The notes: generated from the sequence alone by a model not told the origin. Shown: positions 4,060 to 63,495, numbered from the stretch's first letter. The stretch: 64,000 bases of DNA from Clostridia bacterium (GCA_017415025.1 JAFQJH010000009.1:23570-87569); one strand, 5' to 3'. Made by a program: numbers and translations.

Positions 4060-4884
4060 TTACTGCTCAGCGGATGATCCGTCACCGTCATCCAGCTCAT
4101 AGCACCAGAAGCCCATAGACATCTTGATTTCGCCGTCGAGAATCTTGTTAACACATTCAGGATCCCAACCTTCGAGCCAAATTACAACCGTATACTTATC
4201 AACGTCGCCAACCGGGAAAAGCTTCTCTTCCTCTTCCATAACCTTTGTGCTGGAAACGAAGTTTTTGTCAACGGTGTACTGAATTACGCCTGCAGAGTTT
4301 TTGTTTTCCTCAAGCTGATCCGTCGTACCGTTTTTCGGTTTGGCGTAAATTGTAGGCTCGCCGTTCTTGTAAACCATAACACGGACTGCATCATCGGCAC
4401 CCAAAGCAACAGAATCAATAAGGATCTGTGAATTATAGCCGACGTCAACATTACCTGCATTCTTCACATAGAAGGTATATGCAAGGAACTCCTGACCGTT
4501 CGAACGGTTATGTGAGCCGTCGATCCGGTCAATATCGTCGGGAAGCCAGCTGAAAGTACAGTCGCCCATATTTTCACACTTTTCACCGGCGAGGAAACGT
4601 GAGGGATTTTCGAATCCCGGAGTTTCCGAAAGAGTAATGCCCATGTTATATGCGTCTTTATCCATTGTAACCGTAAAGTCACCTGCTTTATTTACGTAGG
4701 ATGAGCAAGCGAACATTATGGAAAGGAAAAGCAGAAGTAAAACAAGGATAATCACGAGGATTCGGATTAAAGCTTCTCTCTTCTTAACTTTTTTTGATTC
4801 GGTCTTAACGCCGTAGCGGTCCATCTGACCGTTCTGCTGCAAAGCGGCATCGTTCGGCGCCTGATCCTTTTTCTTTTTAGCCAA
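4060..4884 (-). CDS. Membrane-anchored divergent paralog 3 (possible anchor/accessory subunit)
   Basis: 274 aa with a TTG start preceded by AGGAGGAGGA. Lys-rich cytoplasmic N-terminus and one TM helix (LIRILVIILVLLLLFLSIMFA). The ectodomain aligns loosely with paralogs 1 and 2 and ends in VVIWLEGWDPEC followed by an acidic tail. Confidence 0.7.
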   Translation of the reverse strand: MAKKKKDQAPNDAALQQNGQMDRYGVKTESKKVKKREALIRILVIILVLLLLFLSIMFACSSYVNKAGDFTVTMDKDAYNMGITLSETPGFENPSRFLAGEKCENMGDCTFSWLPDDIDRIDGSHNRSNGQEFLAYTFYVKNAGNVDVGYNSQILIDSVALGADDAVRVMVYKNGEPTIYAKPKNGTTDQLEENKNSAGVIQYTVDKNFVSSTKVMEEEEKLFPVGDVDKYTVVIWLEGWDPECVNKILDGEIKMSMGFWCYELDDGDGSSAEQ

Positions 4885-6862: not shown

Positions 6863-7612
6863 TTATTTCTTTTTAATGCATTTTATAATCTGAAACACAC
6901 CTGCTGCAAGCATCAGTATCGGAACAAAAATCCAAAGACCAAAGGCTTGAAATGTTTTTATTAAAGAAAAGGTTTCCGTGAATTTTAGAACAGGAAATCC
7001 TGCACCGATTACCGTGAAAACTATGCCGATATACAATCCGAAAATATCTGTTTTAATTTTATCAAAAAGTCCCGTTGCCGACAAGCCGAAAAGCACAAAC
7101 GCACCTGCAACCAGAATAAAAAATACACCCGCAAAAATCATTATTTTTTCTGCTTTGATAATACCGAAAATCAATAATAATAAGCCTGCAAAAACTGCGG
7201 CAAAAACCAAGCCTGCGCTCGCAAATTTTATTAAATTAAATCTTGATTTTTCCTCTTTTTCTGCGTCACCTTTAAACAGCTTTCTTTTCAGAAAATAAAT
7301 TCCGATAAGCCAGAACGGTATTGAAAAAACGGTTAAAGAATAGTTTTTATCTCTTAGGGTTATGTAATCTGCAACAGCGAGGAAGCCGAACCAGAAAAGA
7401 AAAAATCCTGCTTTGAATAATTTATCAAACAGTGATGCAATTTTTTCTTTATTTAAAATTATTGCCAGACTTTTTCCCGCCATTGATAAGCTGCAGACTA
7501 AAAACGGAACAAAAATTATTTTCGGACTTGTTGTTTTTATCATAAAATAAATCAGCAAAGCCGTGATGAAAATTGACGAAATCAACCTGCCTGTAATACT
7601 GTTTATTCTCAT
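6863..7612 (-). CDS. Polytopic membrane protein, unknown function
   Basis: 249 aa with about 7 hydrophobic helices. AT-rich. No recognisable motif. Confidence 0.55.
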   Translation of the reverse strand: MRINSITGRLISSIFITALLIYFMIKTTSPKIIFVPFLVCSLSMAGKSLAIILNKEKIASLFDKLFKAGFFLFWFGFLAVADYITLRDKNYSLTVFSIPFWLIGIYFLKRKLFKGDAEKEEKSRFNLIKFASAGLVFAAVFAGLLLLIFGIIKAEKIMIFAGVFFILVAGAFVLFGLSATGLFDKIKTDIFGLYIGIVFTVIGAGFPVLKFTETFSLIKTFQAFGLWIFVPILMLAAGVFQIIKCIKKK

Positions 7613-7642
7613 ATTTTTTCTCTTTCCTTTTTAGAATGGTTT

Positions 7643-8263
7643 GATAAATTGGGAGTTTGTCGTGCAAAGTCTTTGACTTTGCAATGATATATCCGCAATG
7701 CGGATATGATGAATGATGTTCGTTTCGCGAATGATGTGTTTGCGCAGCAAACATTAAGGGGCTGCGCCGCGATTATAAACGGCGGCAGCTAGCCACCGCC
7801 CTACCGCGCGAGTTTCATTTGAGGCGGTAGGGGCAGATATCATCTGCCCGCGGATTTTGATGTAATTCTTCGGGAGCATACTATGCTCCCCTACTGACAC
7901 TATCTTATTAAAATGCGTAGGGCGTGTCTCAAGAGCCACGCCCTTAGTTGGTTTAAAAATCTTCGGCACGTCGGCAAGCGCCGTGCCCTACGAAAACAAA
8001 TTTTAATCTGCTCGATAAATTGGGATTTGTCGATATCTTTTCAAAATTGAAACAAGCCAAAGACAAGCAACCTTCTCTGAAAGGGAAGGTGCCCGACAGG
8101 GCGGATGGGTGGAGCGTCAGCGACCAAAAAGTTCTTTGATATATCTTGTTTCCCTCGTTGCTTCGCAACGAACCCCTCAGTCACGACTTTGTCGTGCCAG
8201 CTCCCCTTTCAGGGGCGCCATTGTTCTACTGACTTTTTATTTTTCCCCGACAAATTAAATTTT
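7643..8263 (+). repeat. Mosaic intergenic repeat, copy A (GTAG-headed palindromic units plus mini-hairpin string)
   Basis: Shares long near-identical blocks with 34705..35265 and 37742..38010, and in inverted orientation with 56738..57255. Contains five GTAG/CTAC-headed palindromes at 7781-7804, 7827-7849, 7872-7894, 7917-7943 and 7965-7991. Confidence 0.9.
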
Positions 8264-8278
8264 GCAAAGTTTTTTCTC

Positions 8279-9301
8279 TTACTTTCTGTATTCAGATACA
8301 GAAAATGCAACATTTTCATTATCTCTGTACTCTTTGCGCGATATAAGTTTCATTCCTAAGTTATTGCAAATTTCATCAAGATTATTCAAATCACTATACA
8401 TTCTGCAATCCTTAAGAATTTTCAATGTTTCTTTTTCTGTAAATCCAAAGGGTTCTAAAATTCTGTATTGTCTCATAAATGCATTGTTTCTTGAAATAAC
8501 AACAAATCTTCCGTTATCTGCCAGCACTCTCGACACTTCTTTTAAAGTTTCAATTATTTCTCTTGATTCATCCAAACCGCAAACGGTACAAATTGTTTTA
8601 AAAGATTTATCCTTAAAAGGCAAATACCAAAAATTTGCACATACGGGAATAATTTTTTTCTTTTGATATCTTCCAATACCAAAAGCATTTCCCAGACAAT
8701 CAAAGCCTATATCAACAGTATACAATTCACAATCTTTCGGCATATACAATGCAACCGAAGCCGTTCCTCCACCCGCACCTGTTGCCAATTCCAATATTCT
8801 ATCGGTTTGTTCTTTACAAACTAATTTACCAAAGTAACGATATCTGTCCCAAAGAGGACCTTCTCCTTTTATTTTTGTTATTGTTCTTTTCTTACCTATG
8901 CTCTTCTTTGAAAATTTTTTAAAATCCTTTATTTGATTTTTAGTTACATTTCCGCTTTTGTCTCCTGTAATCCAGATATCTGTTTCTTTTTGCTTATACG
9001 AATCAAAAGCCTTCAGAATATTCTCTTTTGTTCCGTGTATTTCATTTATGTATTTGATATAAATCTCGTTACGATCAGCAACATTATCACTTTCTATTTC
9101 TTCATAAATCTTTGTAATTATATTACTATGTTCCCAAAAAATAATTTCAATCAGCTCACGACTCCAATCAGGGTTTGTCTTTTCGGGAAGCAAAATCGGA
9201 ACTCCTTTAATTACGGAATAGCTTTCTTTGCCATCCGTTGAAACAAGTTTATTTTTATTTAAACTCAATTTCTTATGGCTTTGAGGTGCAACAAAAATCA
9301 T
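8279..9301 (-). CDS. Class I SAM-dependent methyltransferase with Trm112-like N-terminal segment
   Basis: 340 aa. Motif I ILELATGAGGGT and N-terminal VIKGVPILLP. Very AT-rich compared with the neighbouring core genes. Confidence 0.7.
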   Translation of the reverse strand: MIFVAPQSHKKLSLNKNKLVSTDGKESYSVIKGVPILLPEKTNPDWSRELIEIIFWEHSNIITKIYEEIESDNVADRNEIYIKYINEIHGTKENILKAFDSYKQKETDIWITGDKSGNVTKNQIKDFKKFSKKSIGKKRTITKIKGEGPLWDRYRYFGKLVCKEQTDRILELATGAGGGTASVALYMPKDCELYTVDIGFDCLGNAFGIGRYQKKKIIPVCANFWYLPFKDKSFKTICTVCGLDESREIIETLKEVSRVLADNGRFVVISRNNAFMRQYRILEPFGFTEKETLKILKDCRMYSDLNNLDEICNNLGMKLISRKEYRDNENVAFSVSEYRK

Positions 9302-9480: not shown

Positions 9481-10575
9481 ATGAAGCTTGGTATAGTAGG
9501 TCTGCCGAACGTCGGCAAGAGCACGCTTTTTAACGCAATCACAAACGCAGGTGCACAGTCTGCAAACTATCCGTTCTGCACAATTGAGCCGAACGTCGGT
9601 GTTGTTGCAGTTCCCGACAGCAGAATTGACGCTCTCTGCGAGATGTATAACCCCGCAAAGGTTACTCCCGCAGTAATCGAATTTGTTGACATCGCAGGTC
9701 TTGTCCGCGGTGCATCAAAGGGTGAGGGTCTCGGCAACAAGTTCCTTTCACATATCCGTGAGGTTGACGCGGTTATCCACGTTGTTCGCTGCTTTGAAAA
9801 TGACGACATTATCCACGTTGACGGCAGCGTTGACCCTGCAAGAGATATTGAAACAATCAATCTCGAGCTTATTTTCTCCGATATCGAAATGGTTGAACGC
9901 CGTATCGACAGAACTTCAAAGGCTATGAAGGGCGACAAGAGCCTTGCAAAGGAGTATGAATTCCTTAAGGCACTCAAGGCTCACCTTGAAGAGGGCAAAT
10001 CCGCAAGAAGCATTGAATGTGACGACGATGAAAAAGCAATCATCGGTGATATTGCACTTCTCACCTCAAAGCCCGTTATCTACGCCTGCAATATGAGCGA
10101 GGACGACTTTGCAAACAGCATCCAGTCCAACGAAAGATTCAACGCGGTATGTAAGATTGCGGCGGAGGACGGCTCACAGGTGCTCCCCATCTGTGCCGAA
10201 ATGGAGGCAGAAATCGCGAGCCTTGACAAGGAAGAAAAGGAAATGTTCCTTTCTGACCTCGGCATTGAGCAGGGCGGTCTTGACCTTCTTATTCAGCGAA
10301 GCTACGACCTTCTCGGTCTTATCTCATACCTCACCGCAGGTACTCCCGAGGTTAGAGCCTGGACAATCAGAAAGGGCACAAAAGCTCCTCAGGCTGCAGG
10401 TAAAATCCACTCCGATTTTGAAAAGGGCTTTATCCGCGCAGAGGTTATCAGCTTTGAAAACCTTATGGAATGCGGCTCACTTGCGGCCGCAAGAGAGAAG
10501 GGACTTATCCGCTCCGAGGGTAAGGAATACGTTATGAAGGACGGCGACGTCGTTCACTTCCTTTTCAACGTTTAA
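9481..10575 (+). CDS. ychF: Ribosome-binding ATPase YchF
   Basis: MKLGIVGLPNVGKSTLFNAIT G1 motif. 364 aa with the TGS-like C-terminus typical of YchF/OLA1. Confidence 0.95.
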   Translation: MKLGIVGLPNVGKSTLFNAITNAGAQSANYPFCTIEPNVGVVAVPDSRIDALCEMYNPAKVTPAVIEFVDIAGLVRGASKGEGLGNKFLSHIREVDAVIHVVRCFENDDIIHVDGSVDPARDIETINLELIFSDIEMVERRIDRTSKAMKGDKSLAKEYEFLKALKAHLEEGKSARSIECDDDEKAIIGDIALLTSKPVIYACNMSEDDFANSIQSNERFNAVCKIAAEDGSQVLPICAEMEAEIASLDKEEKEMFLSDLGIEQGGLDLLIQRSYDLLGLISYLTAGTPEVRAWTIRKGTKAPQAAGKIHSDFEKGFIRAEVISFENLMECGSLAAAREKGLIRSEGKEYVMKDGDVVHFLFNV

Positions 10576-10677: not shown

Positions 10678-10822
10678 GAAGCATTATTTCAGTCATGTGG
10701 TGTGTTGGTCCTGTGCGACGGGGTGCCACGAACCATGTCAGGCGGGGAACCGAGCAGCATTAAGAGGTTAACACCGTGCGACACAGTCCGGCCTGCGCAC
10801 CATATGACTGAGGTAATGCTTT
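10678..10822 (+). ncRNA. ffs: Signal recognition particle RNA (small/4.5S-like type)
   Basis: Long closing helix: GAAGCATTATTTCAGTCATGTGGTG pairs with CACCATATGACTGAGGTAATGCTT. Conserved domain IV-like core GTCAGGCGGGGAACCGAGCAGC. A T-run follows. Its position just upstream of dnaX matches the scr-dnaX arrangement in Bacillus. Confidence 0.75.
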
Positions 10823-16380: not shown

Positions 16381-16383
16381 GTT

Positions 16384-16427
16384 AAAGCAGTAACTCTCAG
16401 ATGAAAGTTACTGCTTGATTTTTTTAT
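16384..16427. terminator. Convergent (bidirectional) terminator between remB and serS
   Basis: Hairpin AAGCAGTAAC/GTTACTGCTT followed by a T7 run. Confidence 0.7.
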
Positions 16428-16433
16428 ATTATC

Positions 16434-34552: not shown

Positions 34553-34639
34553 GCAGAAGTGGCGGAATCGGCAGACGCGCTAGATTCAGGTTCTAGTGAA
34601 TGCAAATTCGTGAGGGTTCAAGTCCCTTCTTCTGCACCA
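34553..34639 (+). tRNA. tRNA-Leu (anticodon CAG)
   Basis: Type II tRNA with a long variable arm. Anticodon stem CTAGA/TCTAG with loop TTCAGGT. T-arm GAGGGTTCAAGTCCCTT. Encoded CCA. Confidence 0.9.
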
Positions 34640-34642
34640 AAG

Positions 34643-34678
34643 ACATCTTGACGCCGTCAGGCGTTGAGATGTTTTTTT
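34643..34678 (+). terminator. Intrinsic terminator after tRNA-Leu
   Basis: ACATCTTGACGCC/GGCGTTGAGATGT hairpin followed by a T7 run. Confidence 0.75.
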
Positions 34679-34704
34679 GTTTGGGACTTGAATCCTAAAT
34701 TGTT

Positions 34705-35265
34705 GGTTTGCGCGCGTTTCTGAAAAGGCGGCAGCAAGCCACCGCCCTACCGCACAATTAAAATTTAGTCAGTAGGGGCAGATATCATCTGCCCGCGGAT
34801 TTTGATGTAATTCTTCGGGAGCATACTATGCTCCCCTACGAACATAACTGTATTAAGGCGCGTAGGGCGTGGGTCTTGAGACACGCCGTTAGTTGGTTTA
34901 AAAATCTTCGGCACGTCGGTAAGCGCCGTGCCCTACAAAACAATTTTTAATCTGCTCGATAAATTGGGGTTTGTCGGTATGTTTGGTATAATTAAATTTA
35001 CGCACAATCATAATCGCCCCTGAAAGGGGAGATGTCTGCGGAGCAGACAGAGGGGTTGCCCACAGGGCAATTTTTCTTATAATATCAAATTTCCCTCGTT
35101 GCTTCGCAACGAACCCCTCAGTCACGGCTACGCCGTGCCAGCTTTTTCTCCGAAAACTGGCACCCTTTTGTCTGCTTCGCAGACATTTCCCCTAACAGGG
35201 GAATCCCCTTTCAGGGGCGCCATTGTTCTACTGATTTTTTATTTCTTCACGACAAATTAAATTTT
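34705..35265 (+). repeat. Mosaic intergenic repeat, copy B
   Basis: Has the same GTAG-headed units as copy A (for example GTAGGGGCAGATATCATCTGCCC ... GGGAGCATACTATGCTCCCCTAC). The central module is different (CCCCTGAAAGGGG, GTCTGCGGAGCAGAC, TTGCCCACAGGGCAA). The 3' module CCCCTTTCAGGGGCGCCATTGTTCTACTGA is shared with copy A. Confidence 0.9.
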
Positions 35266-35310
35266 GAGGGTTAATACCGAGGCTTTGTTGTGGTCTTTTT
35301 TATAAAACTA

Positions 35311-35340
35311 TTGAAAATTTGCAGGCGGTTGTGATATACT
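35311..35340 (+). promoter_or_regulatory. Promoter of candidate structured RNA
   Basis: TTGAAA, 18 nt spacer, TGATATACT (extended -10). Confidence 0.45.
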
Positions 35341-35345
35341 AATTG

Positions 35346-35566
35346 TGCCAAACGAACTTAATAAACAGATGTACGGGGATTTTTATCTTTTTACGGAATA
35401 ATTGCGTCCTTTTTATATCACAATGTTTTTTGAATTTGTAAAAATGCAAATTCCATTAAAACATTGTGATGCGGATTATTATCCCCATTCTGTTTGAGTT
35501 TGTTTGGCGACAACCGGAGTTTGCGTTTTATGTGCGTCGGCTTTGGTTGACGCACTTTTTTATTTT
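35346..35566 (+). ncRNA. Candidate structured RNA: rod-like (possibly 6S-like) sRNA, or a terminator-containing leader
   Basis: The ends pair (TGTGCCAAACGAACT with GAGTTTGTTTGGCGACA). Internal pairs are AAACAGA/TCTGTTT and GGGGAT/ATCCCC. The apical hairpin is ATCACAATGTTTT...AAAACATTGTGAT, enclosing GAATTTG/CAAATTC. An intrinsic terminator GTGCGTC/GACGCAC plus T6 lies at 35532-35561. Confidence 0.35.
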
Positions 35567-35577
35567 GGGGTGAAAGC

Positions 35578-35910
35578 GTGGATATCAACGAACTTACCGA
35601 GCTCATTCTCGATACCGAAGATGAAATGTTGCAAAGTGATATCGAAGAACCACCGATGTCAGTCAGACAAAAAAGAAACGAAAATGCATTTTTGCGCGAG
35701 GATATCGGTTTTGACTATGCCGTATTTCCCGAAGCAGATAATGCTTTTGAGCGTTTGCGTACCCGACTTTATCTTCGTTTTCCCTGTTGTCCGTGGATAT
35801 CACGGATGTACAAATCAAGAAAACGGAGAGAAGAACGTATGAAGAATTACGATTTTACTACCCCGGAAGAATTTCTCGAAGCGTGGAAGATTGCTTTTCC
35901 CGAAGAATAA
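35578..35910 (+). CDS. Hypothetical acidic protein
   Basis: 110 aa with a GTG start 5 nt after GGGGTGA. No recognisable domain, so its coding status is uncertain. Confidence 0.35.
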   Translation: MDINELTELILDTEDEMLQSDIEEPPMSVRQKRNENAFLREDIGFDYAVFPEADNAFERLRTRLYLRFPCCPWISRMYKSRKRREERMKNYDFTTPEEFLEAWKIAFPEE

Positions 35911-36255
35911 TTATTTGTTATCGTGAGCAAAGGAGCCTGAAACGGTAATAAAGATTTTTCACTGCGTTCAGAATGACACGATTGAAGATACGAACGACTT
36001 AAAAATCACATTACACCAACAAATAAAGGGAAGATTCTGCGCGAATCTTCCCTTTAGTATTTTTATTTCATCACCGCATATCCTTCACAAAGTCGGGCAT
36101 AAAACCTCCGCCGTGTATTATATTATCAAAAAATTTCTTTTCCATAGTATCAGTCCTTTTCAGGATAAAATTACTATACTTTACTTTTTACGTACTTGCA
36201 ACAGCAAAGCAAATGGGGTATAATTCTTTTATAAACTTAAAAAGCGAGGGATTTT

Positions 36256-37741: not shown

Positions 37742-38010
37742 GCACAATTTACAGTTGGTGAGTAGGGGCAGGTATCATCTGCCGTTGTTTTTGCTGAATC
37801 TTCGGCACGTTGCAAGCGCCGTGCCCTACAAAACAATTTTTAATCTGCTCGATAAATTGGAGTTTATCGGGATATTTGCAATAAGCCGCGTAGGGACGGG
37901 CGTCCTCGACCGTCCTGAAAAAAGCAGAATCCACGGATGGTCCGGGAGGCCCATCCCTACACGCACAAAGTTTGTTTGTGCAATTTTTACTCCCCGACAA
38001 ATTAAAATTT
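37742..38010 (+). repeat. Mosaic intergenic repeat, copy C (shortened variant)
   Basis: Retains GTAGGGGCAGGTATCATCTGCC, GGCACGTTGCAAGCGCCGTGCCCTAC, the CGATAAATTGGAGTTTATCG module and the terminal CCCCGACAAATTAAAATTT. It adds a new GTAG doublet: GTAGGGACGG...CCGTCC and GGATGG...CCATCCCTAC. Confidence 0.85.
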
Positions 38011-54759: not shown

Positions 54760-54815
54760 ACTGCATCCTTAAAAAACAAGGGGCTGAAAAATACAGCCCC
54801 TTTAATTTAAAATAA

Positions 54816-56737: not shown

Positions 56738-57255
56738 AAATTTTAATTTGTCGGGGAGAAATAAAAAGTCAGCAGAACAATGGCGCCCCTGAAAGGAGAT
56801 TCCCCTGTTAGGGGAAATGTCTGCTAAGCAGACAAAAGGGTGCCAGTTTTCGTAGAAAAAGCTGGCACGACGAAGTCGTGACTGAGGGGTTCGTTGCGAA
56901 GCAACGATAAAAACAAGATAAATCAAAGAACTTTTTGGTCGCTGACGCTCCACCCATCCGCCCTGTCGGGCACCTTCCCCTTCAGGGAAGGCTACTTGTC
57001 TTTAGCTTGTTTCAAAATGAAAAAACATCGACAAACCCAAATTTACCGAACAAATTAAATTTCATTTCGTAGGGCACGGCGCTTGCCGACGTGCCGAAGA
57101 TTTTTAAACCAACTAACGGCATGTCTCAAGAGCCACGCCCTACACACCTTAATGTAATTGTGTCAGTAGGGGAGCATAGTATGCTCCCGAAGAATTACAT
57201 CAAAATCCGCGGGCAGATGATATCTGCCCCTACCGAGCTTAATTGTAATTCGTGC
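56738..57255 (-). repeat. Mosaic intergenic repeat, copy D (inverted relative to A-C)
   Basis: The reverse complement aligns with copy A over essentially all modules. By eye, identity is over 90 percent across the central 150 nt. Confidence 0.9.
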
Positions 57256-57294
57256 TTTGCCCTCCTTTACACAAGGAAGGCTAGAAAACAGCAA

Positions 57295-58685: not shown

Positions 58686-58762
58686 GGGCCATTAGCTCAG
58701 TTGGTTAGAGCAACCGGCTCATAACCGGTCGGTCCGGGGTTCGAGTCCCTGATGGCCCACCA
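58686..58762 (+). tRNA. tRNA with anticodon CAT, most similar to lysidine-type tRNA-Ile2 (elongator Met not excluded)
   Basis: Cloverleaf with anticodon loop CTCATAA and D-arm AGCTCAGTTGGTTAGAGC, as in Bacillus tRNA-Ile(CAU). G1-C72 is paired, so it is not an initiator. Confidence 0.85.
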
Positions 58763-58771
58763 ATTTAATAT

Positions 58772-58847
58772 AGGGGTATAGCTCAGTTGGTAGAGCAGCG
58801 GTCTCCAAAACCGCGTGCCGAGGGTTCGAGCCCTTCTGCCCCTGCCA
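58772..58847 (+). tRNA. tRNA-Trp (anticodon CCA)
   Basis: Acceptor AGGGGTA/TGCCCCT, anticodon stem GCGGT/ACCGC with loop CTCCAAA, T-arm GAGGGTTCGAGCCCTTC. Confidence 0.9.
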
Positions 58848-58853
58848 AAGAAA

Positions 58854-58895
58854 AGTCCGAAAAACCTTGATTTTACAAGGGTTTCGGGCTTTTTT
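58854..58895 (+). terminator. Intrinsic terminator after tRNA-Trp
   Basis: AGTCCGAAAAACCTTG / CAAGGGTTTCGGGCT hairpin followed by T6. Confidence 0.7.
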
Positions 58896-59169
58896 CATAC
58901 CTGAAATCAATTTTGCTAAAATCGCAATTTACCGTAAAATATCGCACATTTTCGAGTACTATATGTCCCCCGATATGTCCCCCGCAAAAGACCGCGAGTC
59001 CTGTTGTTATAAGGGGTTTTGAGCTTTGGGTTAATTTAAAATATAGCATTTTTTAGGGTGTTTTTTACCGCGTGCCGTAATTTTGATGTTTTTAACACTT
59101 GTTTTATTGATATTTATAACGTAAAAAAATAGAGCAGAATGGCAATAAGATCATTCTGCCCTTAATCGT

Positions 59170-60336
59170 TTATGAAACCAAGGTTTCCTTTATAAATTTG
59201 TCCTGCAGCATAGCGGCATTGGTTTTTGTAGCATCATCAACATGAGTGTAAATATTTGCAGTAACACCGTACTCACTGTGTCCCATAAGCTCCTGTGCCG
59301 TCTTTATATCAACACCCGACCATTGAAGCATTGAGCAATAGGTGTGGCGGAGCTGATGTGCGGTGAATTCTTCAAAGCACTCATCCGCAAAGCAGAGGTT
59401 GTTCTCATCTGCACCGTCAGCCACCCTTAACGCTTCCATATAGCTCTCGAAAAGGCGTTTCCACGCTGTTTCCGTCATTCTTCCTCCGTAAACCTTCTGA
59501 ACGACATAGGAGCCTTTAGAATGCTTTTTAGCTTCAAGAAGTAAATCGCAAAGAAAACCATTCATAGGTATTTTCCTCATACCTGCTTTGGTTTTAGTTT
59601 CCTTCAATTCGCACTGTTTGAAATCATAAGATTTATTAACATTGATGATTTTGTTCTTGAAGTCAATATCAAACCAAGTCAGAGCTGTAAGTTCACCTCG
59701 TCTGAGACCTGCAAGTAGCATTATACAAGCAGGGAGTTTAGCTCTGTGTTCAGTAGTAAGGATTAGTTGGATAGTATGCTTATTTATAGCTGTACGGGTT
59801 TTGGTGACTGAATTTTTAGGGATTTTCAAATCCTCGCAGGGATTACAGAAATTATAAGCTCTCTCTTTTCTTGCAAATTCAAAGACATTAGCGAGAGCTC
59901 TGATATATCTTTGAATAGTTTTCTTCGCCGTAGTTTTGCCTGTTGACGGATTCTTCTTGTATAATTCGTTTATGGCAGGCTGAATGTGAGAAGGAAGAAT
60001 ATCATTGAGTTTTGTTTTTGCAAGTAGTCCGCCTTTATAATCTATAAAGTATTGCAATCTCGCTTTTAGAGTTTTGTACTCAGACTCTTTGATATTATCA
60101 CACATCACTTCACTTTCTATCGTTTCAAGATAATGATTTACCCATTTTATAAGGGTATCATTATTTTTCAGAATGTTCAGACCGCTGTCTATTGCGTTCT
60201 TATACTCTCTTACTCTCTTCTCAAGCTCTTTCTCTGTCTGAGCCTTTAGCTTTTTGTATTTGGGTTTTCCGTTGGCATCTGTACCTATATAAAGTCGGGT
60301 ACAAAAGCTGTTTTTTTCTACATAAATCTTATTCAT
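59170..60336 (-). CDS. Tyrosine-type site-specific recombinase/integrase
   Basis: 388 aa. C-terminal catalytic region HQLRHTYCSMLQ...LMGHS...IYTHV (R-H-R-Y signature). Confidence 0.9.
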   Translation of the reverse strand: MNKIYVEKNSFCTRLYIGTDANGKPKYKKLKAQTEKELEKRVREYKNAIDSGLNILKNNDTLIKWVNHYLETIESEVMCDNIKESEYKTLKARLQYFIDYKGGLLAKTKLNDILPSHIQPAINELYKKNPSTGKTTAKKTIQRYIRALANVFEFARKERAYNFCNPCEDLKIPKNSVTKTRTAINKHTIQLILTTEHRAKLPACIMLLAGLRRGELTALTWFDIDFKNKIINVNKSYDFKQCELKETKTKAGMRKIPMNGFLCDLLLEAKKHSKGSYVVQKVYGGRMTETAWKRLFESYMEALRVADGADENNLCFADECFEEFTAHQLRHTYCSMLQWSGVDIKTAQELMGHSEYGVTANIYTHVDDATKTNAAMLQDKFIKETLVS

Positions 60337-60390
60337 TTTGTCCTCCTGAAAAAGTATTTGAGGGATGCTTTCGCACCCCTCACGTCAATA

Positions 60391-60624
60391 TTACTGTTTA
60401 ACGTCATTATCATCAAATGTGCCGAGTCCCATTTTGAGAAAATCATCCTGACTGACACGCCATTCTCTTCCGATTTTTCGAGCCTTGATTGTACCTTTCT
60501 GACAGTATTTCTTTAACGTCTCATAATTAAATCCCGTCAGACCTGCCACCATCTCCAGAGTAAGCAGATAAGGTAAACCGTCAAGGCTTGAAATATAATT
60601 TCTTTTGATTGCATTAGTCTTCAA
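60391..60624 (-). CDS. Excisionase-family HTH DNA-binding protein
   Basis: 77 aa. LTLEMVAGLTGFNYETLKKYCQKGTIKARKIGREWRV. Confidence 0.75.
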   Translation of the reverse strand: MKTNAIKRNYISSLDGLPYLLTLEMVAGLTGFNYETLKKYCQKGTIKARKIGREWRVSQDDFLKMGLGTFDDNDVKQ

Positions 60625-60638
60625 TAAACATCACCTCC

Positions 60639-61484
60639 TTATCTCGAATCCCAGTCTCTTTGACGAAGAAGGTATCTGTAATAATGCTCACAAGCTTTCA
60701 GTACAAAATTTTCAAAGTCTTTATCCTTAATCTTAGGAGCAACTTTTTGCAGCTTCTCCATAGATACTTTAAACATAGGCTTCTGATTTGCCTTATCTTC
60801 CTGCATAATGGTTTCAATATCTTCATCAGAAAGCTTTCCCGTCTGACTTAATTTTTTGAAACGGACAGCCTGTGAAAGAGATGGTGTTCTGTCTTCAACC
60901 TCAATGACACCGAGAAGTGCATACTGTTCTTCGTCGGTAAGGTATGAAAGCTCAACCGCAGGTGTGAGTGCGATTTTTTCTTCATCAACAAGGTCAAGTA
61001 ATTCGGGGATGAGATAAGTCAGACGAATATAACGTTGAATTTGTCTACCACTGTCTGTATCTGAAATTTCATCTCGTGACTTGTGGCCAACTTGTCCACA
61101 AGTGATACCCTGATGCTTCATTGCTTCAAGCTTCAAATTGTAAGCAAATGCCTTCTCCGACGGGAGAATATGCTCTCGGTGAAGATTACTGTCAACGAGC
61201 ATAATTGCCGCTTCATCACGGTTTATGGCATAAATAAAAGCAGGTACTGTTTCCAGCCCTGCTTTAACCGTAGCGTGTAAGCGTCGGTGTCCGCTTATCA
61301 CCTCATATTCATCTGTGTTTTCAATAGGTCGGATAATTATAGGCGTAAGAATACCTTGCTCCTGAATACTGCATATAAGAGTATTCATTTCATCGTTATC
61401 CAAAACCTTATAAGGATTTCCCTCAAAGGGATGAATTTTTGATACCGGAATGTTTACCGGTGATTTGATGTTTTGATTAAACAT
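60639..61484 (-). CDS. ParB-like nuclease-domain protein (element-borne)
   Basis: 281 aa. ILTPIIIRP...YEVISGHRRLHA ParB/Srx N-terminal motif. Confidence 0.8.
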   Translation of the reverse strand: MFNQNIKSPVNIPVSKIHPFEGNPYKVLDNDEMNTLICSIQEQGILTPIIIRPIENTDEYEVISGHRRLHATVKAGLETVPAFIYAINRDEAAIMLVDSNLHREHILPSEKAFAYNLKLEAMKHQGITCGQVGHKSRDEISDTDSGRQIQRYIRLTYLIPELLDLVDEEKIALTPAVELSYLTDEEQYALLGVIEVEDRTPSLSQAVRFKKLSQTGKLSDEDIETIMQEDKANQKPMFKVSMEKLQKVAPKIKDKDFENFVLKACEHYYRYLLRQRDWDSR

Positions 61485-61502
61485 AGTATACCTCCATAAA
61501 AA

Positions 61503-61688
61503 TTAATAATTTCTTTTATACTTTTTCTGTTCAGCTCTGATAATCTGTAAGTGTTTTCTGACAGAGTACCAAGGTGTACCCGAATACTTGGAAAAATATT
61601 CGCTTGATGACATCTCTTCTTCGTAATACTCATCACTGTCAGCCTTTTTCTCTTCCTGCATTTTCTTGCAAAGCTCTTCAGCATTCAT
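61503..61688 (-). CDS. Small hypothetical protein (element-borne)
   Basis: 61 aa, acidic then basic, tightly packed between the relaxase and ParB-like genes. Confidence 0.4.
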   Translation of the reverse strand: MNAEELCKKMQEEKKADSDEYYEEEMSSSEYFSKYSGTPWYSVRKHLQIIRAEQKKYKRNY

Positions 61689-61693
61689 AGTAT

Positions 61694-63157
61694 CTACCTC
61701 CCTTCATAATGTTTTTCTTTGACCTGAGCTCTTTCAGGGAAGTACCATTCACGGATAAGTGCCTTCTCCACTTCAAGACTTTCCTCAAGCCCCGGTCTGT
61801 CTTTGATAATTCGTTTTGCAATGTTAATCTTTTCACGCAGTGAGCCGATTTTAGACGTAAGAAAATCCCGACGGACAACAAGCTCTTCTTTGTCCGTCGG
61901 GTCTTTGCATCTTCTTATCTGATTGTAAATTTTGTTTCGCTGAGTTTTAAGCTCCTCCATACGAATCTCTGTTCTTGAAATGAATTTATCAACCTCGGCA
62001 AAGTCATAAAGCTTTTCGTTTATTGCAAGCTCAATCTGTTTATGCATAAACTCTATTCTCGGTGCAGAATATTTCATCTTCGGTGAGAACGGATGAGGAT
62101 TGCAGTTGTTCTTTTCAGCTATTGCTCCCACAAACAAGAGGGCAATAAAGAAAAGTGAAATGACAGGTGCACCGAGCACGGCACCACCTACAATCAGCTT
62201 TGTAAAATCAGAAACAGTTCTGTTAAAAGTTTCAGGGTGACGATAATGCTCTGCTGATTCTTTAAACTCATAGCCCTTGTAACAATAAATAAAAGTTTGG
62301 TTACGCAGATAATTATTCGCACGGGTATAGTTATAAAAATTTTCATCCACCTCATAAAGCCTCTGATGGTTAATCCTATCCCAAAGACTTTCGTAAGAGT
62401 ATTCATCACCAAGGTTTGAAAGCTTAACTCCGTACTTGTCGGTACGGTAACCAATCTTACCGTCATCAAACCAATAACCCTTCTGACTCATAATTCTGAA
62501 AAACTGTTTTATACTTCTGCTTCTCGGAATAGCGTAATCAATATCTTCACGCATATAATCATATTTTGTTTTAATACCTTTCTGCTTTGCCTTGTAAACA
62601 TTGTAAGGAATGCGTTTGCCCTTCGGGTTTTCAATAACAGATAATCCGTGTTCAATACAAACTTCATCACTCGTCTTTCTGAACAGTCGGTACATCGCTC
62701 TGTCTTCATTCATCTTTTTTCCGTCAGTCATTGAAACGGAATTTATTACGATATGGCAGTGAACACAGTTAGCATTAAGGTGGGTGGCAACAACCATCTC
62801 ATAATCAGCTCCCCACATCTTATTCGCAACCTCCATTGCAACCTGCTGTGCTTCTTCAGGTGAAACTTCACCGGGTTTAAAAGAAATATATGCGTGATAG
62901 GCAACAATACCTCCCGTCTTTCCATACATTTCTTTTGTATCAATCATCTGTCTTGCAGCAATGTCAGGGTCACAGTTAATGCCGTCAACAAGAAGTCGCT
63001 GTTCGCTTTCAAGATTTGTTTTGTCCTTGTCGGCGGCATAGTGAAGTGATGAAACGAGGTCTGAATATTTTGACAAATCAGTTTTGCTTTTATTAGCAGC
63101 GTAAGACACAACCTGATGAATGTTATTTTTTATCGGCCATATTCTTGTAACTGCCAT
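61694..63157 (-). CDS. Relaxase/mobilization nuclease (MobA/VirD2-type)
   Basis: 487 aa. N-terminal relaxase fold with histidine triad context ATHLNANCVHCHIVINSV. The stop of mobC overlaps this start. Confidence 0.85.
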   Translation of the reverse strand: MAVTRIWPIKNNIHQVVSYAANKSKTDLSKYSDLVSSLHYAADKDKTNLESEQRLLVDGINCDPDIAARQMIDTKEMYGKTGGIVAYHAYISFKPGEVSPEEAQQVAMEVANKMWGADYEMVVATHLNANCVHCHIVINSVSMTDGKKMNEDRAMYRLFRKTSDEVCIEHGLSVIENPKGKRIPYNVYKAKQKGIKTKYDYMREDIDYAIPRSRSIKQFFRIMSQKGYWFDDGKIGYRTDKYGVKLSNLGDEYSYESLWDRINHQRLYEVDENFYNYTRANNYLRNQTFIYCYKGYEFKESAEHYRHPETFNRTVSDFTKLIVGGAVLGAPVISLFFIALLFVGAIAEKNNCNPHPFSPKMKYSAPRIEFMHKQIELAINEKLYDFAEVDKFISRTEIRMEELKTQRNKIYNQIRRCKDPTDKEELVVRRDFLTSKIGSLREKINIAKRIIKDRPGLEESLEVEKALIREWYFPERAQVKEKHYEGR

Positions 63158-63495
63158 TAAACGAATCTCCCTTTTCCCGGTTTAAAATATTTTGCGATAT
63201 CCGATTCAAGTGAACGGATATCTGATAAAACTTCTCTGCATTCAGCACGGTCAATGAAACCGATTGAGTTAGCTTTAGCAGTAAGCTGATTAAGATTAGT
63301 ACCGACTCTGCGAAGCTCAATGATAAAATGTTTGTAATCAATTGGCGGAGCTTCAACAAGCCTACTACCTAAAATCATTGCTCTGATAATTTTGCTTCGG
63401 TCAGTTTTCATTACCTTACAAAATTTGTTTAATACTTCATTTTCTTCTTCACTAAGATAAACATGAAAATCAATTTCTCTTTTTCGTTTTGACAT
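63157..63495 (-). CDS. mobC: MobC-family relaxosome accessory protein
   Basis: 112 aa. LRRVGTNLNQLTAKAN motif. Confidence 0.85.
   Translation of the reverse strand: MSKRKREIDFHVYLSEEENEVLNKFCKVMKTDRSKIIRAMILGSRLVEAPPIDYKHFIIELRRVGTNLNQLTAKANSIGFIDRAECREVLSDIRSLESDIAKYFKPGKGRFV

Follow-up and report, generated by a model that had tools for sequence, protein, structure and literature searches.

GTAG-footed hairpin clusters of probable REP/BIME type in an uncultured ruminant-gut Clostridia genome, and RAYT-like proteins with matching hairpins in related bacteria

Results

Copy A: an intergenic gap occupied by palindromes

Between two minus-strand open reading frames (ORFs), encoding a membrane protein and a methyltransferase, a 666-nt gap (7613-8278) in a 64,000-nt stretch of 'Clostridia bacterium' DNA (GCA_017415025.1, JAFQJH010000009.1:23570-87569) is occupied by a gene-free element of 620 bp at 7643-8263. 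The whole 64-kb stretch is referred to below as the window, and the element as copy A of a mosaic repeat that the window holds four times. An original prediction, made from this DNA, had described the element as built of palindromic units like the repetitive extragenic palindromes (REPs) and bacterial interspersed mosaic elements (BIMEs) of Proteobacteria, in a Clostridia-type genome. The latter assignment is correct: the window's YchF and SerS are those of a 'Clostridia bacterium' metagenome-assembled genome (MAG) at NCBI, and the host lineage consists of uncultured bacteria of that name from ruminant gut metagenomes.

Copy A begins and ends with a ~19-nt motif and its inverted partner (IR-L and IR-R; AAATTGGGAGTTTGTCG ... 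CGACAAATTAAATTT), which match imperfectly, at 12 of 17 positions. Inside lies an AT-rich array of mini-hairpins, followed by five GC-rich hairpins, T1-T5, each with GTAG (CTAC on the other strand) at its foot, a second IR-L motif in direct orientation, and a cassette of mini-hairpins without such feet (Table 1). T1-T5 alternate in strand at start-to-start distances of 46, 45, 45 and 48 nt, and stems are unrelated from one unit to the next (T2 vs T3 and T4 vs T5 are examples). The five alternating palindromes had been predicted, and their positions proved exact to the base; the four predicted mini-hairpins are likewise in place, being all the cassette hairpins of Table 1 except that at 8091-8102. 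The AT-rich array, the end motif with its inverted partner and the three further copies go beyond the prediction. The two ORFs that lie on the repeats (7754-7969 and 7953-8168) are translations of palindromes, which is how the prediction had explained them.

Table 1. Coordinates of copy A, its flanking genes and the three other copies, counted from the first nucleotide of the window
Feature	Position	Strand	Remarks
Flanking ORF	6863-7612	minus	249-aa membrane protein
IR-L, first ~19-nt end motif, copy A	7643-7662	plus	GATAAATTGGGAGTTTGTCG; pattern map
AT-rich mini-hairpin array	7663-7780	plus	TGCAAAGTCTTTGACTTTGCA, ATATCCGCAATGCGGATAT, TTCGTTTCGCGAA, GTTTGCGCAGCAAAC; ATGAT-like linkers; sequence and fold
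ORF on repeats	7754-7969	minus	MPKIFKPT...
REP-like unit T1	7781-7804	GTAG foot on minus	GGCGGCAGCTAGCCACCGCCCTAC, also written GGCGGTGGCTAGCTGCCGCC
REP-like unit T2	7827-7849	plus	GTAGGGGCAGATATCATCTGCCC; found in 4/4 copies
REP-like unit T3	7872-7894	minus	
REP-like unit T4	7917-7943	plus	
ORF on repeats	7953-8168	minus	...SGTFPFREG...FVGHGACRRAEDF
REP-like unit T5	7965-7991	minus	most widespread unit: several rumen MAGs and metagenome contigs
Second IR-L motif	8014-8032	plus	direct repeat of 7643-7662; pattern map
Cassette of GC mini-hairpins without GTAG feet	8033-8245	plus	sequence and fold
Cassette hairpins	8071-8089, 8091-8102, 8156-8170, 8182-8196, 8203-8215		
IR-R, inverted partner of end motif	8246-8263	plus	CCCGACAAATTAAATTTT
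Flanking ORF	8279-9301	minus	methyltransferase
Copy B	34727-35265	plus	T1-T5; IR-L 34958-34976; hairpin cassette; IR-R 35248-35265
Copy C (short)	37762-38010	plus	T2, T5; IR-L 37851-37869; cassette; IR-R 37993-38010
Copy C cassette units			T6 37890-37915; T7 37935-37960
Copy D	56738-57281	minus	T2-T5 57069-57233; IR-L 57029-57047; IR-R 56738-56755
Copy D extras			GC hairpin 57259-57281; GTAG-footed unit 56973-56995 inside cassette

Four mosaic copies in the window

A repeat search identified the other three copies. Whole clusters of 180-550 nt recur at ~90% identity, the modules common to copies A-D are ~88-92% identical, and the spacers between units are common to the copies and to a related locus, L104 (related loci are cited by such L numbers). 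All four copies sit between co-directional genes, three of them in the same orientation as the genes. The interior of T4 in copy A is the reverse complement of that of T4 in copies B (34862-34887) and D (57118-57143), despite which the GTAG foot is on the same side in all three; the unit has been inverted on a small scale, between its own stem arms.

Copy B starts 90 nt downstream of a tRNA gene (34553-34636). At this start, one strain (L145) has ~770 bp inserted (7306-8156); the insertion includes a 23S_rRNA_IVP-family gene, and on both sides of it stands a 78-nt direct repeat made up of the tRNA 3' end and terminator (window equivalent 34622-34698). On the other side, between copy B and the gene of an FAD-dependent oxidoreductase, the ~1 kb at 35266-36255 holds no convincing gene: it has only small ORFs with no Pfam match, and one assembly calls a 110-aa gene there.

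Hairpins, folding and searches for known elements

A scan for GC-rich hairpins that took no account of the head sequence found 23 outside genes in the window, 19 of them in the four copies. A GTAG/CTAC foot was present on 13 of these 19, as against none of the four other intergenic hairpins. A scan for GTAG plus hairpin found 14, of which 13 were inside copies; in first-order Markov simulations of the window, GTAG hairpins averaged 2.8 per 64 kb and never exceeded 6. The G+C content of the copies is 46-47% vs 38.6% in sequence outside selected long ORFs.

Compared with shuffled sequence, copy A folds far better, with z = -9.2 and -8.8 on the two strands. Folding this equal on both strands is the behaviour of DNA palindromes, whereas for a one-stranded RNA gene some difference between the strands would be expected. 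The tally of G.T vs A.C mismatches as a strand indicator (9 vs 5) is weak and leaves the functional strand undecided. Rfam covariance models gave no match in the window at gathering scores; relaxed thresholds (E <= 1 with copy A and E <= 0.1 with the segment that spans copies B and C) produced only a 19-bit chance match of copy A to FsrA. Promoter-like sequences were not in excess over background, and terminator-like sequences were at background, with two found vs 1.3 expected. Copy A had no blastn match in 72,556 plasmids and 50,697 phages, and scans of IMG/VR returned a single match to the T5 pattern and none to that of T2; the hairpin elements are not phage-borne.

A hairpin family in rumen and hindgut Clostridia

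The GTAG hairpin type is abundant in MAGs and metagenome contigs of rumen and hindgut Clostridia/Oscillospiraceae, and units of the window's type are present in RUG641, RGIG150, RGIG4275 and rumen metagenome contigs. Scanning contigs with the 16-mer AAGCGCCGTGCCCTAC returned at least 111 loci, mostly chance matches in GC-rich genomes, about 10 of which were relevant. L061, from a related Oscillospiraceae MAG, has ~7-8 units of alternating orientation in a single intergenic gap; L133 has 14-15 units in 6.7 kb, the count varying with the scan; and L104 (RGIG150) holds a composite built as the window copies are.

Together, the window and related loci supplied 100 instances with 52 distinct sequences. 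The stems measure 8-9 bp in 96 of the 100 and open with GG(G)...(C)CC, the loops measure 3-6 nt in all, a G directly follows the hairpin in 91%, and a G.A mismatch recurs. Covariation, the check proposed with the original prediction, is seen at the third stem pair of T5, for which the search pattern held the 3' arm only, so that the 5'-arm base was free to vary: 26 of 27 instances are paired (17 T-A, 9 C-G), one is a T.G intermediate and none is C.A. Across the hairpin family, stems are kept through compensating changes.

Several same-species contigs terminate at the repeat. Many short-read contigs (L115-L121) stop within ~50 to 400 nt of the methyltransferase gene, which places their ends at copy A or in it.

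A RAYT-like protein with hairpins inside its gene

L061 encodes, at 6940-7434, a protein of 164 aa, bearing MPNHIHAII (HUH), WQ and YIDTNP motifs, that resembles RAYTs, the tyrosine transposases associated with REPs. It matches the NCBIfam profile REP_Tyr_transpos (NF047646) with E = 2.7e-20 and the IS200 profile with E = 0.0039. All 19 family members scanned match NF047646, and among solved structures the family profile has one match, 4ER8, which is E. coli TnpAREP. At E <= 1e-5 the family comprises at least 1537 clusters (90% identity). The best 120 relatives are nearly all 160-190 aa long, and the few named ones are labelled Oscillospiraceae or Clostridia MAG.

The L061 gene holds GTAGGGCAGGGGCTTGCTCCTGCC upstream of the HUH motif and its reverse complement downstream (7054-7077 and 7218-7241), both in frame. 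The two hairpins encode VGQGLAPA and AGASPCPT, peptides that are conserved with few substitutions in the best 120 hits; in these parts the RAYT is a translated hairpin of the kind found between genes. The hairpins have the same positions in L151, L152 and L137, whose genomes are 41-45% G+C; their DNA is identical in L061, L151 and L152, and L137 differs by a mutated head only. Yet the L151, L152 and L137 proteins are just 62-74% identical to that of L061. The synonymous sites of the hairpins seem to be frozen, which suggests that the hairpins either have a function in the DNA or RNA itself or are re-homogenised repeatedly. Compensated variants of the in-gene hairpin include T1 and the dispersed GGCGGGGGCTTGCTCCCGCC units; in T1 (GGCGGTGGCTAGCTGCCGCC) stem and loop resemble the internal hairpin GGCAGGGGCTTGCTCCTGCC, the comparison being with L061, L151 and L152.

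There is one RAYT copy per contig, in chromosomal surroundings. Over all related loci collected, tblastn with the RAYT matched only the known RAYT genes, and four RAYT clusters that we looked up are all in other MAGs, in non-syntenic surroundings. Directly upstream of the RAYT lies a 62-64 aa ORF for a ribbon-helix-helix (CopG-like) protein in L061 (6736-6930) and in L137 and L138 (9813-10001), where it overlaps the RAYT start; none is called in L151, L152 and L163.

Turnover at orthologous sites

The site of copy A (site A) could be compared with three NCBI MAGs that share its synteny, L139 (93-96% nucleotide identity), L141 and L140 (both 83-89%). All three keep the inverted end motifs, directly upstream of the membrane-protein gene, and all three are missing the T1-T5 block. 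L140 has only ~60 nt between the end motifs and is free of GC hairpins; L141 combines the window's GTAG-less cassette (91% over 157 nt) with a REP pair of its own; in L139 part of the cassette (9865-9927, vs window 8157-8219; 63-nt match, 84%) is inverted with respect to the end motifs. Two direct copies of the motif flank the window's block 7663-8013, which is absent in L141 and L139. The gap between ychF and the methyltransferase gene holds a 195-nt hairpin element in L139 and none in the window, with flanks 93-96% identical; in this one filled/empty pair, ~18-nt diverged direct repeats lie at the sides of the element and there is no short target duplication.

Gene conversion is visible at site B, where a patch of the A/D type has been copied into strains that are 99% identical to the window. 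Site D is empty in L155 (88% identical). In L154 (98.7% identical) the content is different: two AT-hairpin arrays together with T6/T7 units as in copy C, closed by the same motif.

The ~19-nt inverted end motif bounds all four copies and the orthologous elements of L139, L140, L141 and L104. It is restricted to the window's lineage, being missing from the other REP-rich contigs searched, and was not found in the RAYT loci L061, L137, L138, L151 and L152.

Other hairpin arrays and further features

The AT-rich module of copy A (7663-7780) behaves as a unit that can move: the window has it at site A, the same-species loci L154 and L159, from other strains, at site D (94% identity). AT-rich arrays of mini-hairpins with ATGA(A/T)-like linkers and differing stems lie at 7663-7780 in the window, ~3091-3340 in L154 and 78-216 in L159. 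In L157, a strain 97-98% identical to the window, an array of ~170 nt (~4540-4710) replaces the terminator hairpin found in the window at 54760-54815, between the gene of the AcnX swivel subunit and rnhB; it consists of tiny variable hairpins with the 9-mer AGCTAAATT four times and then its reverse complement AATTTAGCT four times. There are accordingly three linker types: GTAG-footed GC hairpins, ATGAW-linked AT-rich arrays (7663-7780, L154) and the AGCTAAATT-linked array of L157.

Elsewhere, the gap between serS and a remA-like gene carries an extra gene of 322 aa with a faint GT-D-like match in L139 (430-1398) and L140 (1835-2803), which is in neither the window (~16381-16433) nor L141. A gene for the bacterial small SRP RNA (10703-10800; Rfam RF00169, 54 bits) lies directly upstream of dnaX. 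In the region 58686-63495, two tRNAs (58686-58759 and 58772-58844) precede genes for a tyrosine integrase (59170-60336), a ParB-like protein (60639-61484), a MobA/VirD2 relaxase (61694-63157) and a NikA/MobC protein (63157-63495); the arrangement resembles an integrative mobilisable element located at a tRNA site.

Discussion

Published GTAG-tagged REPs have a GT[AG]G foot, a loop of 2-5 nt and a stem of 7-20 bp whose first pairs are G-C (PMC6006769, PMC3733652). Nineteen units of the window carry GT[AG]G within 0-2 nt 5' of the hairpin foot, with a paired, G-C-rich basal stem and a short loop. REPs are extragenic and typically number more than 100 per genome; here the 19 units in 64 kb are all intergenic and all inside the four clusters. 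As in BIMEs, they alternate regularly and are separated by recurring spacer motifs. The HUH and catalytic Y motifs of a RAYT, and a match to the RAYT over the IS200 profile, are found outside the window, in the L061-type protein. Because the units have the structure of REPs and are arranged as in BIMEs, we consider that the clusters are probably elements of the REP/BIME type and that rumen Clostridia probably have a REP/RAYT system in which seeding by a RAYT was followed by host recombination. The likeness to REPs and BIMEs that had been predicted is thereby upheld, on foot, stem, loop, intergenic multi-copy occurrence and regular alternating spacing.

REP binding and cleavage on single-stranded DNA are known only for E. 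coli TnpAREP (PMC3479197, PMC8266576). By analogy with that enzyme, a RAYT-type HUH/Y1 nuclease, encoded by one gene per genome, would bind the hairpin together with GTAG on single-stranded DNA and would cut and rejoin beside the hairpin (PMC3479197, PMC8266576). New units could in this way be seeded beside older ones, and clusters be built. The locus comparisons suggest that multi-unit blocks then spread and reshuffle mainly via the recombination and replication machinery of the host, through gene conversion between copies, inversion at short inverted repeats and duplication at the ~19-nt motif; template switching may, to judge from the orthologous sites, be among the ways in which clusters are copied, swapped and inverted. 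A putative role for the host (RNA 3'-end protection, protein binding sites) would be secondary.

Several observations weigh against a REP/RAYT system. With the RAYT as query, tblastn found no RAYT in the window, no other Y1 gene was found there either, and the same-lineage sequence (an estimated ~150 kb, non-redundant) likewise yielded no RAYT/Y1 gene. At the five scanned RAYT loci the gene has no tight REP flanks and external REPs are sparse, with one ~1 kb upstream in L137, two ~6.5 kb away in L151 and none within 20 kb in L152. The L061 protein scores 72.7 bits vs a curated cut-off of 80 for NF047646, and every member tested falls slightly below it. About half of each copy consists of hairpins without GTAG feet, and this cassette and the end motif are left unexplained by REP/RAYT biology. 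Finally, the visible gains are multi-unit blocks with ~18-20-nt direct repeats at their sides, not single units, and are therefore more like recombination than single-unit HUH transposition. A RAYT elsewhere in the window's genome is nevertheless plausible, because the related L061 encodes a RAYT-like protein with the same GTAGGG hairpin type.

The main rival explanation makes the element bounded by the ~19-nt inverted motif the primary mobile unit, comparable to a MITE (a transposable element of miniature size with inverted repeats) or cassette, which a transposase or site-specific recombinase moves and in which the GTAG hairpins are passengers or nested insertions. The imperfect inverted ends of all four copies and of the L139, L140, L141 and L104 elements would fit such a unit, as would the minimal L140 form of ~60 nt without GC hairpins, the position of the T1-T5 block of copy A between two direct motif copies, the filled/empty pair with direct repeats at its sides and the limitation of the motif to the window's lineage. 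We judge this unlikely, since the flanking repeats are diverged and ~18-20 nt long with no consistent short target-site duplication, the interior is highly variable and can invert, the element has no linked transposase or recombinase, and the GTAG feet, the stem covariation and a RAYT with matching hairpins go unexplained. It is improbable that the hairpins are instead maintained by the host for RNA 3'-end protection, termination or protein binding, spreading by recombination or template switching with no dedicated transposase. Such maintenance would suit the placement of the copies between co-directional genes, three of four in gene orientation, as well as the compensating stem changes and the demonstrably active gene conversion and inversions; yet units are followed by G and not by T runs, terminator-like sequences are at background, folding is equally strong on both strands, and the GTAG foot would be constant but roleless. 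Moreover, near-identical strains differ in locus content and site D is empty in a relative, which argues against a locus-specific function.

A multi-copy structured non-coding RNA gene of ~600 nt would account for the very stable predicted folds (z ~ -9) and the compensating stem changes. It becomes very improbable given the absence of an Rfam match at gathering scores or, the chance FsrA match aside, at E <= 1, the lack of strand asymmetry in the fold, a promoter scan at background, and modules that are gained, lost, flipped and swapped among copies and strains. That the copies are a decayed insertion sequence, RAYT pseudogene or prophage is hardly credible: the sequence is repeated and intergenic, and an integrase/relaxase element lies elsewhere in the window, but the plasmid and phage blastn searches were negative, IMG/VR gave one T5 match and zero T2 matches, and the ORFs over the repeats are palindrome translations. 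The remnant of an insertion sequence or prophage that was to refute the original prediction is thus not seen, and a RAYT pseudogene is rejected since tblastn with the RAYT finds nothing in the window. Also rejected for the window is a reading as REPINs (REP doublets forming hairpins), because the stems of adjacent units are unrelated.

We tentatively mention one wider scheme, about which we are doubtful. The lineage may have its own hairpin-cassette system, in which variable arrays are inserted, duplicated, inverted and exchanged at an att-like ~19-nt motif (AAATTGGGAGTTTGTCG) and GTAG units are one flavour of array. The mechanism could then be a site-specific recombinase or template-switch synthesis and not classical RAYT transposition, and the repeats, if this were true, would be a modular type distinct from REP/BIME and MITEs.

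REP/RAYT systems have been worked out nearly wholly in Proteobacteria. Rumen and hindgut Clostridia/Oscillospiraceae can now be added as hosts of canonical GTAG REPs and of a very large family of RAYTs (at least 1537 clusters at 90% identity). Strains 95-99% identical differ in the hairpin blocks they carry per locus, and so provide naturally occurring material with which the building and reshuffling of REP clusters can be dated and dissected. In practical terms, the repeat family breaks metagenome assemblies and yields spurious 'hypothetical proteins' made of palindrome translations.

Comparison with known systems

Among MITE-type small repeats are BOX and RUP in Streptococcus pneumoniae and the Correia elements in Neisseria. 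Compared by description only, these are like the present elements in their length of 160-350 bp, imperfect terminal inverted repeats and intergenic, multi-copy, non-coding nature. MITEs as a class have terminal inverted repeats and a short target-site duplication of fixed length. Here the inverted ends are imperfect, and no short target duplication is defined: in the one filled/empty pair the direct repeats are diverged and ~18 nt long. The interior is an unconserved, variable and invertible set of hairpins.

The resemblance to the GTAG REPs and BIMEs of Proteobacteria (E. coli and Pseudomonas REPs, Stenotrophomonas SMAGs; PMC3733652, PMC2817692) extends to the unpaired GTAG foot, the GC stem of 7-10 bp and short loop, the extragenic position, mostly between co-directional genes, the alternating and regularly spaced order with recurring spacer motifs, and sub-families separated by complementary stem changes. 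The recurrent G.A mismatch is shared with the GTAG-24 repeats of P. aeruginosa. Unlike these systems, the one described here has an AT-rich (44% G+C), uncultured Clostridia host, neighbouring units with unrelated stems, and clusters of 180-550 nt that recur at ~90% and are fused to a GTAG-less cassette with an inverted ~19-nt motif. REPINs (Bertels and Rainey) are matched by head-outward doublets, T2+T5 in copy C and a T4-like unit + T5 with the same spacer in L104, and by identical inverted pairs in L128, in L136 and inside the RAYT gene. The arms of the window doublets have different stems, so that the near-identical inverted REPs and the long hairpin of a REPIN are not found there.

Among the closest known counterparts is RAYT subclass 2.4 (Bertels group 4; PMC6006769, PMC5581495), which is marked by in-frame REPs in the gene, three G-C pairs at the REP stem base and the motifs NH[IFV]H / WQ / YIxNNP (PMC6006769). 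The L061-type protein, with NH[IFV]H, WQ and a YIxxNP-type motif, would on its motifs only be assigned to this subclass, and three G-C pairs at the stem base and in-frame hairpins in the gene are shared as well. The original prediction did not recognise a described family; the kind is in fact already described, as three-G-C-pair REPs cognate to RAYT subclass 2.4. Here, by contrast, the two in-gene hairpins are not variable insertions and are fixed on either side of the HUH motif in the best 120 members. The subclass is known mainly from Cyanobacteria, Bacteroidetes and 'various phyla' (PMC6006769), and for Clostridia Bertels 2017 gives group 1 only (PMC5581495). The surveys PMC3733652, PMC2817692, PMC6006769 and PMC5581495 report no REP family in Clostridia, and literature searches for REPs or RAYTs in Firmicutes or Clostridia returned nothing relevant. 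REPs with a subclass 2.4-type RAYT and in-gene REPs are therefore known, the group described here is not highlighted in PMC6006769 or PMC5581495, and the known kind is extended by its occurrence in Clostridia, by how large its RAYT family is, by the fixed in-gene hairpin pair and by reshuffling at strain level.

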